NCBI RefSeq assembly: GCF_004010195.1
Contig: NC_057719.1
Location: 6,782,846-6,834,571, forward strand
Length of the DNA: 51,726 bases
Reading direction: 5' to 3'
Origin: Chiloscyllium plagiosum
Taxonomy: Eukaryota
Shown: positions 113 through 36,648 of the stretch, one piece after another
How the letters are laid out: every line of letters begins with the position of its first letter
How positions within the stretch are numbered: the stretch's first letter is position 1
The notes under the pieces: generated by a model
Databases searched by the model: none
What the model was told of the DNA's origin: nothing
Seen by the model: the letters and a program-made list of their open reading frames with translations, nothing else
Made by a program: the position numbers and the translations under genes

Positions 113-242
113 CATTCCTGAAGAAGGGCTTATGCCCGAAACGTCGATTCTCCTGTTCCTTGGATGCTGCCTGACCTGCTGCGCTTTTCCAGCAACACAT
201 TTTCAGCTCTGATCTCCAGCATCTGCAGTCCTCACTTTCTCC
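113..242 (+). mobile_element. Mini Penelope-like terminal element, family A (about 130 bp, hammerhead core at 5' end)
   Basis: attcCTGAAGAaGGGCttatGCCCGAAAcgtc...ctcactttctcc, near-identical to copies at 12034 and 25498; flanked by direct repeat cattcctga (113-121, 242-250). Confidence 0.8.
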
Positions 243-393
243 ATTCCTGACTACTGCTTTTGAATAGTATTATACAGCTCAGAAAAAAGCCTTTCAACCC
301 ATTGTGTCTGTGCTGATAATCTGAAAAGGTTATCTGACATGCACTGTCCAGTTCTTTCCCTATAGTCCAGCAATTTATTTTCCTTTTCAAGTG

Positions 394-5375: not shown

Positions 5376-5463
5376 GTGATGGAGCAGCGCTCCGAAAGTT
5401 AGTGCTTTCAAATAAACCTGTTGGACTATAACCTGGTGTTGTGTGAGTTTTAAAATTGTGCAC
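5376..5463 (+). mobile_element. PLE family B terminal fragment
   Basis: ggagcagcgctccgaaagttagtg...aaacctgttggactataacctggtgttgtg matches family B ends elsewhere in the window. Confidence 0.7.
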
Positions 5464-6573: not shown

Positions 6574-6716
6574 AAAGTTAAAAATCACACAACACCAGGT
6601 TATAGTCCAACAGGTTTAATTGGAAGCACACTTCCAATTAAACCTGTTGGACTATAACCTGGTGTTGTGTGATTTTTAACTTTGTACACCCCAGTCCAAC
6701 ACCGGCACCTCCAAAT
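6574..6716. mobile_element. Palindromic PLE family B mini-insertion
   Basis: Perfect 53-bp inverted arms (6574-6626 and 6631-6683), tail of about 33 nt on the right arm, 15-bp duplication cagcacctaataaag (6563-6577, 6717-6731). Confidence 0.85.
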
Positions 6717-6731
6717 CAGCACCTAATAAAG

Positions 6732-8445: not shown

Positions 8446-9262
8446 TATGTGGAGGTGTTAGTGTTGGACCGGAGTGCACTAAGTTAAAAATTACAACACC
8501 AGGTTATAATCCAACAGGTTTATTTGAAAGTACTTGCTTTCGGAGCACTGCTCCTTCATCAGGTAGTGTGGAGCAGGATCAGAAGACATAGAATTTATAG
8601 CAAAAGATCACAGTGCCATGCATGCAGCTGATACAATACATTGAACAAATCTAGATTGCTGTTAAGTCTTTCATCTTTTAGAATGGTTGCAGGTTTCAGT
8701 TTATTAATATGTAAATCCCAGAACTTCTTTCAAGTCAGATTCTCTGGATAAGATTTTATAAAAAAAGGTGATATCTCAGCTGAGACAATGCATTAAAGTT
8801 GCAAGGTTAGAGTCTGTAGGCATCCCAATCTTGAGTTAGACTGGTTCTATTTCCAAAGTAGGAATTTATAAAATGTTACAAGCATTGACTGCCTGCAGAT
8901 TGTGTGCTTTTGAACAAAATAGAATGTATCCGCAATTTCAATTCTGCAAATGCAAATTCACCGCAGAGACTTAGATGCGTGCATGAGAGAGAGAAAGACA
9001 GAGAGAGAGAAAGAAAAGAGTATTTGTGTGAGAGAGCATTTGCGTGCATGTGAGAGTGTGTGTTTGCGTGTGTGCACCTCTTGGGGGGGGGGGTGTGGCT
9101 GAGAGAGCGTGTGTATGAGAGAAAGTCTGCGTGAGTGTGCGAGTCCATAAGAATACACATGTATGTGTATGTGTGTGTTTGAGAGTGTACAGTGTAGTGG
9201 GGTCACCTGTAGTGTGACATGAACCCAAGGTCCCGGTTGAGGCCATCCTCATGGATTCGGTA
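8446..9262 (-). mobile_element. PLE family B 3' region (ORF C-terminus, CA-rich UTR, hammerhead-like core, tail)
   Basis: ORF end HEDGLNRDLGFMSHYR; inverted homolog of 10550-11314; core at about 8531-8566. Confidence 0.8.
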
Positions 9263-10400: not shown

Positions 10401-11314
10401 CCAGATGGACAGTTGTGTTCCCTCCCAGTCTGGGAACATTTCAGTGATCAGGGACATTTGGCCTTGGATCTTTGGGTGACCATCCTCCAAGGCGGACTTT
10501 GGGATACGCAACACCACACACTGGCCAACCTGAGGCTGATAGCTAAGTTCAGACCCCATGAAGATGGCCTCAACTGGGACCTTGGGTTCATGTCATAATA
10601 TAGGTGACCCCACTACACTATGCACTCTCACATACATACACTTACACACTCACACAGACCCTCTCTCATACACACACACACACCTCCCACACTCTCTCCC
10701 ATGCACACACCGTGTCGCAGGCTTATAGTCTATCCCCCTTGCACTTTACCAAGCACGTGCACACACACAGTCTCTCACACGCACACTCACATGCATGCAC
10801 ACACACACTCTCTCTCTCATGCATACATGCAAATATAAGTCTATGGAGTGAATTTGTATTTGTTGAATATTTGCAGATACATTCTATTTTGCTCAAAAAG
10901 CACACAATCTGCAGGCAGTCAATCCATGTAATATTTTATAAGTTCCTACTTTGGAAATAGAACCAGTATGACTCAAGATTGGTATACATATAGACTCTAA
11001 CCTCACACCTTTAATGTACCGTCTCAGCTGAGATGTCACCTGTTTTTATAAAATCTAAGTTATCTTGTGAATGTGACTTGAAAGAAGTTTTGGGATTTAC
11101 ATATTAATATACCGAAAACTGCAACACATTCTAAAAGACAAAGACTTAACAGCAATCTAGGTTTGTTCAATACAGTATATCAAATCAGTTGCATGACACT
11201 GTAAAATCTTTTGCGATAAATTCTGTGTCTTATGATCCTGCTCCACAGATACCTGATAAAGAAGCAGTGCTCCGAAAGCTATTGTTTCCAAATGAACCCG
11301 TTGGACTATAACCT
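10401..11314 (+). mobile_element. PLE family B 3' region
   Basis: ORF 10395-10598 SLPVWEHFS...LIAKFRPHEDGLNWDLGFMS (C-terminal end of GIY-YIG region); ends in a degenerate hammerhead core and ttggactataacct. Confidence 0.8.
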
Positions 11315-12290
11315 TGATTTGGAGATACTGGTGTTGGACTGGGATGTACAAAGTTAAAAATCACAGAACACCAGGTTTAATTGGAAGCACTAACTTTCGG
11401 AGCGCTGTTCCTTCATCAGGTGGTTGTGAAGTACACAGTTGTAAGACACAGAATTTATAGCTAAAGCTTACAGTGTGATGTAACTGAAATTATACATTGA
11501 AAAATACCTTGATTGTTTATTAAGTCTCTCATCTGTTAGAATGACCATTTAGTTTCACTTCTTTCATATGTAAATCACAAAACTTTTTTAAAAAGTTACA
11601 TTCTCAGGTTAACTGTAACAATTGGTGTCAGTCAGATAAGATGTTGAAGGTGTTAGCCCCCTCTGTTCCCTGTCTGTGCCAATGTAACTCTGCAAGTACA
11701 AATTCACCCCACAAACGTATATGTGTATGTGTGTTTTTGTGTGTGTCCCCGTCTGGGGTAGGGGATTGAGAGTGTGAGAGAGTGTGTATATGTGAGTGTA
11801 AAGTGTCTAAGTCTGTGAGAGAATCATGTATGTGTGTGGGAGTGTGTATAGTGCACTGGTGGTCACCTGTAGTGTGGCATGAACCCAAGGTGCCGGTTGA
11901 GGCCCTCCCTATGGGTACAGAACTTAGCTATCAGCCTCTGCTTGGCCACTTTTCCCTGCTGCCTGTCCTGAAGTCCGGCCTTGGAGGATGGTCACCCGAA
12001 GATCTGAGGTCGATTGTCCTGGACCACTGAAGTATTCCTGAAGAAGGGCTCATGCCCGAAACGTCGATTCTCCTGCTCCTTGGATGCTGCCTGACCTGCT
12101 GCACTTTTCCAGCAACACATTTTCAGCTCTGATCTCCAGCATCTACAGTCCTCACTTTCTCCACTGAAGTGTTCCCCAACTGGGAGGGAACACTTCTGTC
12201 TGCTGATTGTTGTGCGGTGCCCATTCATCCATTGCCTTAGCCTTTGCTCAGTTTCACCAATACACCATGCCTCAGGGCATTCTTGCCTGC
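11315..12290 (-). mobile_element. PLE family B 3' region, interrupted by a family A insert
   Basis: Tail, core at about 11388-11423, ORF fragment MNGHRTTISRQKCSLPVGEHFS. Confidence 0.8.
12034..12162 (+). mobile_element. Mini PLE family A insert
   Basis: Full 129-bp unit; TSD ccactgaagt (12024-12033, 12161-12170). Confidence 0.85.
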
Positions 12291-17717: not shown

Positions 17718-18270
17718 AGAATAAAACACAGATGCTGGGGATCTGAAACAAAAACAGAAATCACTGGAAAATGCAACAGGTCTGGCAGCACCGATAGGAA
17801 GAAAGTAGAGTTAACATTTTGAGATCGGTAACTCCTCTTCAGAACTGTTAGGATTGGCAAAACCTGTATTTATGCATAAGTGTGTATGTGTTTGCATGTG
17901 GGCTGGGGCAGTGGGGTGGATGGTGTTGTGTTGAAGGGAATAGCTGAGTGGAAAGATGGAAATAGAATCCACAGAAGAAAGGAGTAGGTAAATAGAGAGA
18001 ATGCATAGCAGGACAGGACAGAAAAAACGCTAATGGTGAGAAAATGGATTCATTGAGCTGAATGCAGCCCATATAAGATGGTAATGGACCGAGGAGTATG
18101 TGAGAATGCATGACTACTAAAATGACCCATGTCAAAACAAGACTGCATGTGTTTAAAAAAAAAACATGGAAGGATGGAATCAGGCTCTAGAGTTATTGAA
18201 CTCAATGCTGAATTCTAGGGTCCCTAAGCGGAAATGAAATATTCTTCGAGCTTGCGCTGAGGCTTGCTGC
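17718..18270 (-). mobile_element. Older PLE 3' region (family related to A)
   Basis: Minus strand RKLEE..FRLGTL..SIEFNN-like ORF end; degenerate ctgaaga..aaaa core near 17810-17846. Confidence 0.55.
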
Positions 18271-21679: not shown

Positions 21680-23224
21680 ACCTTGGGAAAAGTAGTTTTG
21701 CTTGAAATATCCAGGCTGCATAATAATTAGCTAATAGAACTGCATTTCTAGAAAATGATACTAAGACAAAGTTCTGGATTTTCAGAGACTGAAGTTTTAA
21801 GTAAAAATTTCATAGACGTACACCAAAAACAATTTATATATGTTGTCAAGTTCTAATGAAATATTAACTGGGGCAATACTGAGCAATTTTAAAAGAAAAG
21901 AATGGTGAAGAAGGGAAGAAAGGGTACATACAATATCTGACAAATACAAAGTACTGTAACAGACTCTGTTGAAAACATTACAAGTTCTGTAAAGTGTATA
22001 ATTGAGTCTCGACATTCTGCAATGGAAGTTCGATAATCTTCATCTAACAGTAGTTTAATTGGAATATTCATCTGAACTCAAGAATTTGAATATAAGTTGG
22101 TGAGAATATTGTTTTGCGGTCTTTTATTGGAAACTAATTTTGGGTTTTTCGGGCAACCACACAATGTTGGTTATTGAGGGGAGGAGAAGTGGGTTGTCTT
22201 ATTCATTTTGGATTATGTTCATTCTGAAAGCACTAGTTTTCTAATGGTCAGTACACAACCTATTTTGTTTATCTTTCTGAAACTGAATCTCAGATTTTAT
22301 AGGTTATTGCAATAGGGATGGAATTTGTTTTAAAACAAATAATTGCAGATGCTAGAGATCTGAAATAAACAACAACCACTGGATAAATTCAGCAGATCCA
22401 GCAGCATCTGTGAAGAGAAAATCAGTTAAGATATGGAATGCTTCCCAAATTTGTTATCATTAGCTGATCTTGGACCCTGCACATTGTGTTGCTTTTTTTT
22501 TGTACAATATTTGACATGAAAGCATGCTTTCAAACTTGGAAATAGTACTGAAAAGTAGTCTCTCCTCATTCCCTGCATTGTAGCTTTTTTTTTTAAGTTT
22601 GACCTATTTTCCAAAGAGCAGTCCATAACTTGTAGTTAGGAAAATACATTCAGATTTTATAACATTGCAGTATATTATTGTATTATGCAAACTGCACTGT
22701 AGAAAATTACATTTCATAAGTTGAAATTAATGCTGAGTTTAGAAATCAAGGCATCTTTACATTTTGAACAAATAATACCTATCTTCAATGTATAAAAGCC
22801 AAATATGGTGGCTACTGGAAATCTGAGCAGATACAATGCTGGAGAACCTGAACAGATCTGACTATCTGTGGAGAGAAAAATAGAGTTAACATTTTGAGTA
22901 TGGTTTTTTTCAGTTCCAAATGCTGCCAGATATGCAGAGTTCCTTTACCATTAGCTATGCTTATTTGTTTCAATCTTTGAGGAACTGTCAGTTTTAGAGT
23001 CATACAGCATGGAAACACATCCTTCAGTCCAACTAGTCCACACTGACCATGTTCCCAAACTAAACTAGTCCCATCAGCCTGGGTTTGGCCCATATCACTC
23101 CAAACCTTTCCTATCCATGTATTTATTCGAATGTCTTTTAAACATTATAACTTTACCAGCATCCATCAGTTCCTTGTGCAATTAATTGCACACACACCAC
23201 TCTTTGCATTAAAGTTGCCCGAAG

Positions 23225-24249: not shown

Positions 24250-24552
24250 GGGAGTCACGGTGGCTCAGTGGTTAGCACTACTGCCTCAGTGCCAGGGACC
24301 CGGGTTCAATTCCTACCTTGGGTAACTGTGGCTTTTGCACATTCTCCCAGTGTCTGCATGGGCTTCCTCCAGGTGCTCTGGTTTCCTCCCACAGTCCAAA
24401 GATGTGCAGGTTAAGTGAATTGGCCATGCTAAATTGCCCATAGTGTTAGGTGAAGAGGTAAATGTAGGGGAATGGGTCTGGGTGGGTTGCTCTTCGGAGG
24501 GTCGGTGTGGACTTGTTGGGCCGAAGGGCCTGTTTTCACATTTAGTAATCTA
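24250..24552 (+). mobile_element. HE1-type (V-SINE) tRNA-derived SINE, full length
   Basis: A box TGGCTCAGTGG, B box GGTTCAATTCC, central cattctccc..gtctgc..ggtttcctcccacagtccaaagatgtgcagg, CR1-like tail. Confidence 0.88.
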
Positions 24553-25375
24553 GTAGCTGTGACCCCACTTTCAAGAAACTATGAACCTGCACTCCAAGGT
24601 CTCCTTGTTCAGTAACACTTGTAGGACCTTACCATTAAGTATATAATTCCTCCCCATATTTACTTTTCCAAAATGCAGCACCTCACATTTGTCTAAATTA
24701 AACTCCATCTCCCACTCCTTGGCCTGCTGGCCCATCTAATCAAGATCCCGTTGTACTGAGGTAATCTTCGCTAACTGCGGCACCTCCAATATTGATGTAA
24801 TCTGCAAATGTACCTCCTTTGTTCACATCTAAATCATTTGTATAAATGACAAAAAGTAGTGGACTCGGCACCAATACTTGTAGAACACTACTGGTCACAG
24901 GCCTCCAATCTGAAAAACAACCCTGCACCACACTCTGTCATTCTACCTTTGAGCCAGTTCTGTATCCAAATAGTGAGTTCTCCCTGTACTCCACGAGATC
25001 TAACCTTGTGAACCAGTCTCCCATGGGAAACCTTGTCAAACGCCTTACTGAAATACATATAGATCACGTCTACCGCTCTGCCCTCCTCAATCTTCTTTGT
25101 TACTTCAAAAAACTCAATCAAGTTTGTGAGACATGATTTCCCACACACAAAGCCATGTTGGCCATCCCTAATCAGTCCCTGCCTTTCCAAATACATGTAC
25201 ATCCTGTCCCTCAGGATTCCCTCCAATAATTTGCCTCCCACCGACGTCAGGCTCACTGGTCTATAGTTCCCTGGCTTGTACTTAGCACCTTTCTTAAACA
25301 GTGGCACCACATTAATGAACCTCCAATCTTCCGGCACCTCACCTGTGACTATCGATGATACAAATATCTCAGCAA

Positions 25376-25607
25376 GAGCTGGAAATGTGTTGCTGGAAAA
25401 GCGCAGCAGGTCAGGCAGCATCCAGGGAACAGGAGAATCGACGTTTCGGGCATAAGCCCTTCTTCAGGAAGCCCTTCATTCCTGAAGAAGGGCTTATGCC
25501 CGAAACGTCGATTCTCCTGTTCCCTGGATGCTGCCTGACCTGCTGCGCTTTTCCAGCAACACATTTTCAGCTCTGATCTCCAGCATCTGCAGACCTCACT
25601 TTCTCCT
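25376..25607. mobile_element. Palindromic PLE family A insertion (young)
   Basis: Near-identical inverted arms, right-hand tail, TSD tcagcaagag (25369-25378, 25616-25625). Confidence 0.87.
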
Positions 25608-25893
25608 CAACCATTTCAGCAAGAGGCCCAGCAATCATTTCTCTAGCTTCCCACAGAGTTCTAGGGGTACACCTGATCAGGTCCTGGGAATTTATCCACT
25701 TCTGTGTTTCAAGACATCCAGCACTACTTCCTCTGTAATATGGACATTTTTTGAGATGTCACCATCTATTTCCCAACATTCTATATCTTCCACCTCTTTT
25801 TCCACAGTAAACTCTGATGCTAAATACTCGTTTAGTATCTTCCCCAATCTCCTGCGGCTCCACACAAAGGCCGCCTTACTGATCTTTGAGGGG

Positions 25894-25954
25894 ATGGAAA
25901 TGTGTTGCTGGAAAAGCGCAGCAGGTCAGGCAGCATCTAGGGAACAGGAGAATC
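25894..25954 (-). mobile_element. Single-arm PLE family A fragment starting at the predicted hammerhead cleavage site
   Basis: Reverse complement starts gattctcctgttccc; TSD tgagggg (25887-25893, 25955-25961). Confidence 0.75.
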
Positions 25955-26590
25955 TGAGGGGCCCTATTTTCTCCTTAGGTAATCTCTTGTCCTTAATGTA
26001 TTTGTAAAAACCCTTTGGATTCTCCTTAACTCACTTTGCCAAAGCTATCTCATGTCCCCTTTTTGTCCTCCTGATTTCCTTAAGTATACTCCTACAGCCT
26101 TTATACTCTTCTAAGGATTCACTTGATCTCTCCTGTCTGTATCTGACATGCTTCCTCCTTTTTCTTAACCAGACTCTTGATTTCTCTAGTCATCCCGCAT
26201 TCAGTACACCTACCAGCCTTTCCTTTCACCCTGACAGGAATATACCGTTGCTGGACTCTCCTTATCTCATTTCTCATTTTCCAACTGTCCCTTTCCCTGT
26301 GAACATCTGATCCATTTCAGCTTTTGAAAGTTGTTGCATAATACTGTCAAAGTTGCAATTCCTGTAATTTAGAACTTCAACTTTTAGATCTGGTCTATCC
26401 TTTTCTATCACTATTTTAAAACTAATAGAATTATGGTCACTGGCCCCAAAGTGCTCCCTCACTGACACCTCAGTCACCTGCCCTGTCTTATTTCCCAAGA
26501 GTAGATCAGGTTTTGTATCTTCTCTCGTAGGTACATCCACATACTGAATCAGAATTTTCTTGTACACCTTCAACAAATTCCTCACCATCT

Positions 26591-26789
26591 AAGTTAAAAA
26601 TCTCAACACCAGGTTATAATCCAACAGGTTTAATTGGAAGCACTAGCTTTCGGAGTGTCGCTCCTTCATCAGGTGGAGCAGTGCTCCGACAGCTGGTGTG
26701 CTTCCAGTTGAACCTGTTGGACTATAACCTGGTGGTGTGATTTTTAACTTTGTATACCCCAGTTCAACACTGGCATCTCCAAATCAAGG
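26591..26789. mobile_element. Palindromic PLE family B mini-insertion
   Basis: Inverted arms, right-hand tail, TSD ctcaccatctaa (26581-26592, 26790-26801). Confidence 0.83.
26641..26675 (-). ncRNA. Minimal hammerhead ribozyme motif, family B
   Basis: Minus strand cac-CTGATGA-a-GGAG-cgaca-CTCC-GAAA-gcta^gtg (stem I cac/gtg, palindromic AGCT stem III). Confidence 0.7.
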
Positions 26790-35309: not shown

Positions 35310-36648
35310 TGTCTTCCCAGCCAGATTGTTGTTGTTTTTTCTTGAAGCAATGATAAATTGATGAAGGCAGAGCAGTAGCTGTTGCCTGAACACTTCAGGA
35401 ATGCATTTGACAAGGTTCCATATGGGAGCTAGCTGATTGGATACAAAATTGGCTTGAAGGTGGTGATAGAGTTTGCTTTTTGAACTGGAGGCCTGTGACC
35501 AAAATGTGCCATAAGAATCAGTGCTGGGTGCACTGCTCATTCATTATATAAATGATTTGGACATGAATAAAGGAGGCACGGTTAATAAGTTTGCAGTGGG
35601 CAGTGATGAAGATTCTCTGGGTACAATAAGACCTTGTTTGGATGGGTCGGGGGCCAAGGAGTGGCAGATGGACTTTAATTTAGAAAGATGCGATGTTGCA
35701 TTTTGGTAAGGCAAGACTTGTACAGTTAATGGTAGGTCCCTGGGGAGTGTTGGTGAACAAAGGGGTTCAGGTGTATAGTTCCTTACAAGTGGAATCGCAG
35801 GTAGACAGTGGTGAAGAAGGCGTTTGGCGTGCTTGCCTTCATTGGCACTGCCCCATCATGACTAATGTTGGACTGAGATCGACCAGATCAGATGTCGTAT
35901 GACACCAGGTTAAAGTCCAACAGGTTTATTTAAAATCACAAGCTTTTGAAACGCTGCCCCTTTGTCAGGTGAAGTGACATTCATTTGACGAAGGGTCACA
36001 CTTCGAAAGCTTGTGATTTCAAATAAATCTGTTGGACTATAACCTGGTGTTGTGACGTCTGACCTTCATTGGTCATAACCTCCAAACTCCTACACTCAAT
36101 GTTATGGGCCTGTACAGGACATCAGTGAGATCACTTTTGAAATGCTGCATACAATTTTGGTCACCCTTCTATAGGAAGGATGTCAGAGGAGAAAAGACTT
36201 TCAAGGATCTTGCTGGAACTGGATGGTTGAGTTGTAGGGAGAGGCTGAATAGGCTGGACTTTATTCCCTGGAGTGTCAGAGGCTGAGGGGTGACGTTATA
36301 AAATTATAAGGGTATGGATAGGGTGAATAGCCAAAGTCTTTTTCCGAGGATAGGAGAATTCAAAACTAGAGGGCAGAGGTTTAAGATGAGCAGGGAAAGA
36401 TATAAAAAGGACCTGAGGAGTAATTTTTTTCATGCAGTGGATGGTGCATTTATGGAATGAGCTGCCGGATGAAGTAGTGGAGGTAGATACAATTATAACA
36501 CTTTAAAAGGCGTCTGGATGGGTATATGAATAGGAAACGTTTAGAGGGACATTGGCTAAATGCTGGCAAATAGGATTCTGTCACGTTGGGATATCTGGTC
36601 CATGCATATAAGTTGGACTGATGAATCTGCTTTTGTGTTGTATGACTT
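35310..36648 (+). mobile_element. Old CR1 3' half
   Basis: YINDLD..VNKFA, EWQMDFN, CIQFWSPFYRKDV, WNELP; CR1 tail. Confidence 0.8.
35846..36062. mobile_element. Palindromic PLE family D (B-related) insertion
   Basis: Arms acaccaggttaaagtccaacagg / ctgttggactataacctggtgt, degenerate tgacgaa..cgaaagctt cores, TSD ccttcattgg (35836-35845, 36063-36072). Confidence 0.75.

Follow-up and report, generated by a model that had tools for sequence, protein, structure and literature searches.

The 61-base insert at 25894-25954 on the minus strand of the window (the whole stretch of 51,726 nucleotides of Chiloscyllium plagiosum DNA that was analysed, from contig NC_057719.1) is a truncated single retrocopy of family A, a terminal repeat of the Penelope-like element (PLE) kind that carries a minimal type I hammerhead, and its 5' end is the first base after the hammerhead GUC. 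With a probability of about one half, we regard it as a target-primed retrocopy belonging to a small class made on RNA which the hammerhead had already cut. Junction, target-site duplication (TSD), end clusters, counts and the step in 5' starts at the scission site are direct observations, and from these we infer the cleavage itself. PLE hammerheads, internal priming and the tail are already known; the new part is a modest statistical signal at the cut site.

Structure of the insert and of family A

In the family numbering position 1 is window position 25478 (plus strand) and the GUC occupies positions 30-32. The minus strand of the insert corresponds to positions 33-92, with one extra, non-matching T at its 3' end, and is 98% identical to the arm at 25380-25439; its 3' end falls in the short (92-97) class of family ends. 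Intact copies read GAAACGTC and then GATTCTCC, with 12 matches in the window at up to 3 mismatches versus 0.11 expected. The insert is flanked by TGAGGGG at 25887-25893 and again at 25955-25961 (plus strand). Together with a neighbouring PLE insertion it is held by a minus-strand fragment of a host LINE (24540-26580, approximate limits, from translations and paralogues), which we take to be CR1-like from the look of the translation of its RT region, no database hit standing behind the name. Among 21 other copies of this LINE in the fetched DNA the heptamer is found twice in none and exactly once in 6; since these copies carry it at most once, the TSD is exact and no target bases were deleted. 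The first-pass annotation had placed the start of the insert on the first base after the GUC and a tgagggg TSD on either side of it, and both are borne out, the empty site being present in other copies of the host. It had also cautioned about an 'atc' microhomology between target and junction: this likeness exists but lies 2 bases outside the TSD, and the contiguous microhomology at the blunt 5' junction is zero, as the next target base is an A against a G in the element, and the base preceding the junction is an A against a C in the element. Of 16 arms in the window 14 start at positions 1-4, one at 25 through an internal deletion, and one, the present insert, at 33. Taken as a lone event, the insert is weak evidence.

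The hammerhead is intact in the neighbouring copy at 25478-25513 on the plus strand (from sequence, haplotype counts, folds and comparison with PMC4209133), with the predicted scission between 25509 and 25510. Its layout is helix I (1-4/33-36), CUGAAGA, stem II (13-16/21-24) and GAAAC-GUC, and this copy belongs to a fold-back PLE insertion at 25375-25608 made of a minus arm (positions 2-97, 25470-25375), a short spacer and a plus arm (positions 1-131). The core CUGANGA...GAAA...UH is present in the family, with CTGAAGAA in 181, CTGATGAA in 52 and GAAACGTC in 218 of 330 arms, and the arms without these strings are mostly truncated or affected by CpG decay. In the same 330 arms the core reads CUGAAGA or CUGAUGA, GAAACGUC stands without a helix III, and helix I has 4 bp. 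Stem II (GGGC/GCCC) has G10.1-C11.1 and one unpaired base 5' of it, as in minimal PLE hammerheads; its variation sits in the loop, which differs by subfamily (TTAT 161, CTGT 40, TTTT 22, TCAT 15 and TAAT 11 of the 330 arms), and covariation within family A does not prove the pairing. Helix I is fully paired, and part of the minimum-energy fold, in the ATTC/GAAT variant (29 arms); in the commoner ATTC/GATT variant (123 arms) it has a U-U mismatch and lies 0.5 kcal above the minimum, stem II being the only helix in the minimum-energy fold of this main variant.

The Rfam hammerhead models gave no match at gathering score in the window; according to the accessible part of PMC4209133, minimal hammerheads were defined with a relaxed descriptor. 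With the metazoan pLTR minimal type I hammerheads of that paper family A shares the CUGANGA and GAAA core, the extra base before stem II, a predicted 4-bp helix I, the lack of a real helix III with palindromic ACGU, and the dispersed single and inverted copies. In its accessible part the paper holds neither in vivo evidence nor an analysis of genomic 5' ends at the cut, and family A of this genome is not among the examples given there. All 16 arms of the window are single or inverted, and no head-to-tail tandem hammerhead units occur among them. The non-LTR retrozymes (bioRxiv 10.64898/2026.07.22.740005, part of the text) similarly have a type I hammerhead from PLE pLTRs in vertebrate genomes but form tandem arrays, whereas the copies of family A are dispersed single or inverted stubs with TSDs.

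The 3' ends of family A fall into two classes, at about 92-97 and 129-131 (90-99 in 44 and 125-131 in 36 of 114 arms). In the fold-backs of the window a long arm meets a short one head to head. Both features would follow if RT started at two internal sites and the two strands of the target were each extended (PMC11167929, PMC8557442). The family also has the terminal repeat with a 30-40 base tail and an inverted 5'-truncated partner, as described for EN+ PLEs in PMC8557442. Long copies go on upstream with frames in which an RT motif, a CX4CX2C linker and a GIY-YIG-like motif were read by eye in locus L424, where a large inverted PLE insertion (L424:2029-3963) with frameshifted RT, linker and GIY-YIG-like frames would tie family A to an ORF of the autonomous type. 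YIDD and IIYCVRCTRCGLLYIGE were recognised by eye in these frames, upstream of the repeat. For the frameshifted ORF pieces Pfam matched none of 6, PDB gave no credible hit and Atlas no name. The linker, CNRRRCKTC in L424:3178-3576, fits the CX2-5CxxC linker before the endonuclease by which Neptune and Nematis are defined (PMC8557442), and is unlike Poseidon, the clade of the PAc element of Anolis carolinensis considered below. Judged on motifs read by eye, the ORF of the long copies points to the Neptune type.

Several further repeats were seen on the way. A 1-129 monomer at window 113-250 has a target duplication, ATTCCTGA, identical to the first 8 bases of the element itself. Two fold-backs at different sites (L008 and L009) have their junction spacer and a change at position 32 in common, which suggests that a fold-back copy itself served as template. 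A GATGCTGCC...ACCTGCTG core is common to other repeat families (window 17764-17790 and 22379-22409; L045, L048, L059, L061 and L234), which are probably further PLE families. A second abundant repeat family occurs in inverted arrangements at window 5377-5463, 6574-6718, 8447-9254, 10556-11614, 26591-26786 and 35885-36065.

Starts of genomic copies around the scission site

Most 5' junctions of the family are not at the cut site. Of 114 unselected arms, 54 begin between -2 and +6, another 20 upstream of that, 23 between 7 and 24, 3 at 25-32, 3 at 33-36 (one of them the 25894-25954 insert) and 11 at 37-64; 50,691 arms of the young subfamily are unbroken over positions 22-56, a stretch that includes the scission site, against 248 filtered matches which start on it. 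About 99% of arms pass through the site, and the normal template is uncut, since most arms start at about position 1 or run intact through the site. This main 5' end lies 32 bases upstream of the scission site, at the start of helix I, and in long copies it sits in TCATTCC (window 25475-25481 and other copies), which fits an initiator consensus. The promoter of Drosophila Penelope has an initiator, as stated in the accessible part of PMC2377424. About 22 bases upstream of position 1 there is a pyrimidine tract ending in TTTTATCTTAG, similar to a 3' splice site. A cap-copied G before position 1 was considered and not accepted, because the base found there in 21 arms (10 G, 7 T, 4 A) is confounded by fold-back partners.

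In order to count starts genome-wide we used exact 35-letter patterns of the young subfamily, requiring that CCC at 22-24 be lost and that a mismatch immediately precede the start. The 25894-25954 insert is absent from these counts because of a change at position 49 with respect to the pattern. A first pattern (purine before GATT, 544 matches) was replaced, about half of 30 loci being point mutants of full arms, and a DNA search of the shark's own genome with the repeat returned nothing, common words being skipped by the search. By apparent start the patterns gave 376 matches at 25-28 (94 per position), 69 at 29, 143 at 30, 86 at 31, 86 at 32, 248 at 33, 133 at 34 and 183 at 35, the last including chance 36; position 33 is thus the highest of 25-35, with neighbouring positions at 69-183. 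Divided by a filter pass rate of 0.49, the 248 matches correspond to about 500 estimated starts on the site versus the 50,691 intact arms. CpG decay leaves 107 of 138 arms intact, and hand correction for it brings position 33 to about 200 versus about 105 upstream and 90-115 downstream.

About half of all pattern matches are fold-backs or deletions (by eye, 18 of the first 100 matches at 33 are symmetric fold-backs through the GAATC/GATTC near-palindrome), and TSDs were therefore called directly at the junction, by one rule for all classes and with a false-call rate of 9/1198. Classes of simple inserts drawn up without the TSD requirement were discarded; long fold-backs and internal deletions had slipped into them, and position 33 was about level with 30 and 35. 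The loci fetched out of those examined were 72/100 at 25-28, 30/30 at 29, 54/70 at 30, 48/83 at 31, 44/86 at 32, 60/100 at 33, 49/70 at 34 and 43/70 at 35, the unfetched ones being put down as fold-backs, deletions or mutants on reading the listed string by eye (40/100 at 33). Nine non-genuine rows (L415, L208, L221, L197, L324, L132, L365, L245 and L372) were dropped, each being a deletion, a fold-back, an internal tandem or a longer copy bearing a point change; four of them probably start upstream, a loss for which the CpG correction makes up only in part.

After these drops the TSD-flanked inserts number 7 at 25-28, 1 at 29, 6 at 30, 7 at 31, 3 at 32, 15 at 33, 12 at 34 and 9 at 35, and position 33 stands 4.4-fold (2.3-8.4) over upstream and 2.0-fold (1.06-3.8) over 34-35. 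Five loci with tandem duplications (L034, L075, L300, L319 and L123) were then removed, leaving 7/100, 1/30, 6/70, 7/83 and 3/86 for the classes 25-28, 29, 30, 31 and 32, and 11/100, 11/70 and 9/70 for 33, 34 and 35. Scaled and corrected for CpG, this amounts to about 8 per position upstream versus 28 at 33, a ratio of 3.3 (1.6-6.5), so that about two thirds of the clean starts at 33 exceed the upstream rate. Positions 34-35 are themselves 2.1-fold (1.1-3.8) over upstream, and position 33 is 1.6-fold (0.75-3.1) over 34-35 and 1.8-fold (0.7-5.1) over 30, neither of which is significant. A Poisson model that allows for the k-mer frequencies of the genome and for a fitted preference for microhomology still calls for a 2.2-fold step of 33-35 over 25-32 (p=0.005; with the duplications kept, the excess has p=0.0003), and an extra peak at 33 beyond the step has p=0.35 without the duplications. 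The excess of 5' ends after the GUC for which the first-pass annotation had proposed to look is therefore present, with 33 the highest of positions 25-35 and a step up in TSD-flanked inserts, but it is only 2-3-fold, extends over 33-35, and forms no sharp spike without the five duplications.

CpG depletion as the sole cause of the excess was rejected, since the step survives the correction. Junctions at 33 have shorter microhomology than those at 34-35 (1.2 vs 2.2, p=0.06), and positions 25-28, where the strongest hairpin has its 3' edge, show no excess. The first 30 matches of each class, all of them fetched, contain 2 inserts at 25-28 together, then 1, 4, 1 and 2 at the remaining upstream positions, and 4, 5 and 4 at 33, 34 and 35 without duplications. 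Eleven more position-30 loci, kept outside the statistics, added 3 inserts, in line with the earlier rate. The count covers positions 25-35, and a gradient may still underlie the step. The subfamily with a perfect helix I showed no enrichment at 33 (5/15 vs about half at neighbouring positions), and the older subfamily, an uninformative replicate, gave 3 TSD-flanked inserts (27, 35 and 37) and none at 33 among 50 loci fetched of 77 listed. About a third of the TSD-flanked single inserts have very long target duplications of 60-120 bp (L090, L166, L329, L352, L360, L383, L442, L444, L466, L474 and others); nearly all are of the short 3'-end class and many come from the GAAT subfamily.

Origin of the insert and of the step

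In the explanation which we prefer, the element's protein would nick the target and RT would start within the element, downstream of the hammerhead by about 60 or 98 bases, as suggested by the clustering of 3' ends at 92-97 and 129-131. Most templates would be uncut, so that the cDNA runs through the ribozyme and mainly stops at position 1, which is probably where transcription starts, or continues past it. In roughly 1 template in 100 or fewer a dimer- or protein-assisted hammerhead would have cut after the GUC; on such a template the cDNA would run off at G33, and its end would be joined bluntly or after losing 1-2 bases to microhomology, giving the step at 33-35. Joining through microhomology would spread the signal into 34-35, just as at +1 to +6. 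If priming took place inside the element at about 92, copying in the 5' direction and running off at the cut end would yield a 60-base insert ending at G33. We give about two thirds to scission as the cause of the step. For the insert itself, which had been put down to copying of a self-cleaved RNA as a genomic fossil of ribozyme activity, the step lends support, but ordinary truncation also lands on 33; with the excess small and most arms passing the site, the odds that it came from a cut template are about even at most, a figure that combines the two-thirds excess at 33, the two-thirds chance of scission and the blunt junction.

The most serious alternative, in our judgement rather unlikely, is an ordinary premature stop of RT on uncut template, with in vivo cleavage absent or negligible and the step a product of noise and sequence bias. 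Truncations do occur at every position from 25 to 35, about a third of the clean starts at 33 are expected from the upstream rate (more if 34-35 is taken as the baseline), position 30, which is also a G, is raised too, and the counts are small; furthermore the verdict on 40 of the 100 listed matches at 33, and on comparable shares at the other positions, was reached by eye, and the PAc element needs no cleavage according to the accessible part of PMC11167929. Against this, the step survives correction for CpG and microhomology (p=0.005), the A-rich positions 25-28 are low, the fully fetched first 30 matches per class give the same picture, and position 33 had been specified ahead of the count.

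A real step of another origin, namely a stall of RT on the folded hammerhead or a surplus of very short cDNAs in general, appears improbable. The excess does spread over 33-35, the 3' strand of helix I, and the count stops at 35; stalling, however, would be expected at 37, before helix I, or at 25, before stem II, where 25-28 are low, and the smooth slope of a short-cDNA gradient would not give a 2-fold change within 3 bases. Least probable of all is a local origin, in which the neighbouring arm (25470-25375) was copied through a template switch, in DNA or on read-through RNA, and the 5' end of the insert need not reflect a free RNA end: the insert shares orientation and the T90C variant (found in 55/180 comparable arms) with that arm about 420 bases away, and, duplications aside, the other 55 clean inserts all lack a young arm (at least 92% identical) within 500 bases, but the 7-bp TSD, and a 3' end of the class in which the family itself starts, agree with target-primed insertion, 2/30 unselected arms also have a young neighbour 250-500 bases away, and a local RNA template would still be compatible with cleavage.

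The five tandem duplications removed from the count (L034, at 1344-1680, L075, L300, L319 and L123) are perfect and lie directly behind long copies. Each consists of the long copy and its 3' flank, followed by positions 33-94 and the same flank again; they span 132-202 bases with 0 mismatches and shared private variants, and four start at 33 and one at 34. In the assembly the five lie at C1:1850230, C2:51216458, C4:108937433, C10:14628272 and C2:13112197. A scan of 1.66 Mb lists 5 perfect duplications, 4 of them from this set. The start is fixed on the element and not on the distance from its end, which fits a duplication templated by cut read-through RNA, and the 0 mismatches with N runs nearby in 3 of the 4 listed by the scan fit an artefact of gap-filling in the assembly; the duplications at 33 may be either. 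No RNA run covered the junction of the L034 duplication. Two fold-backs with both arms ending at 33 and a spacer of 2-3 bases were also found (L074, L080/L081). Over all fold-backs, however, the partner arm was truncated at position 33 or beyond just as often for arm starts at 33-35 (14/44) as for 25-31 (21/65, p=1.0), which lends the cut-template reading no support.

Ribozyme activity in PLEs

Family A sequence was found on both strands of one poly(A) run and was absent from a second. Its read ends showed no clustering in one poly(A) single-cell run, a type of data ill suited to show it. The closest biochemical comparison is PAc, a Poseidon element, as described in the accessible part of PMC11167929: its RT starts at two internal sites 30-40 bases apart downstream of the hammerhead, the hammerhead cuts only with the protein present, insertion in vitro goes ahead without cleavage, and RNA-seq gave no reads starting at the cut. 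Family A is similar in its two internal RT starts and in the extension of both strands, which matches the long-plus-short arms of its fold-backs, and for it too we propose a protein-assisted hammerhead. The two differ in that PAc cleavage is dispensable in vitro and leaves no reads at the cut, whereas family A has a small genomic excess at the site. Low activity in vitro is given for minimal PLE hammerheads in PMC4209133 and very low in vitro rates in the review PMC6765202, both within the parts accessible, and the role of PLE hammerheads is called unclear in PMC8557442.

A 5' junction at a ribozyme cut has served before as a genomic footprint of in vivo cleavage, as it may here, for R2 with its HDV-like ribozyme (PMC3774820), and likewise, as a junction or TSD next to the cut, for Perere-3 with its twister variants (PMC8501958), to judge from the accessible parts of these papers. 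In those two elements the cut sets the normal 5' end, whereas in family A it would mark about 1% of arms; unlike them, family A has its normal end 32 bases upstream, with the ribozyme intact. In the literature outside subscription papers and supplements (the latter including Fig. S2 of PMC11167929, which bears on this), no report of an excess of PLE 5' ends at the hammerhead cut was found.

The analysis suggests that cleavage happens but is rare among integrating templates. A wider proposal, which we put forward as tentative, is that the genome records the in vivo self-cleavage of a minimal PLE hammerhead, about 1 arm in 100 coming from RNA cut after the GUC, and that cut read-through transcripts of long, promoter-bearing copies template local tandem duplications starting exactly at the cut. 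If true, this would be the first genomic evidence that the minimal hammerheads of PLEs work in an animal, and cleavage would abort rather than enable most retrotransposition. With more than 50,000 young arms, family A makes in vivo cleavage a matter of counting on any assembly, from the height and the exact place of the step in 5' ends at the scission site.
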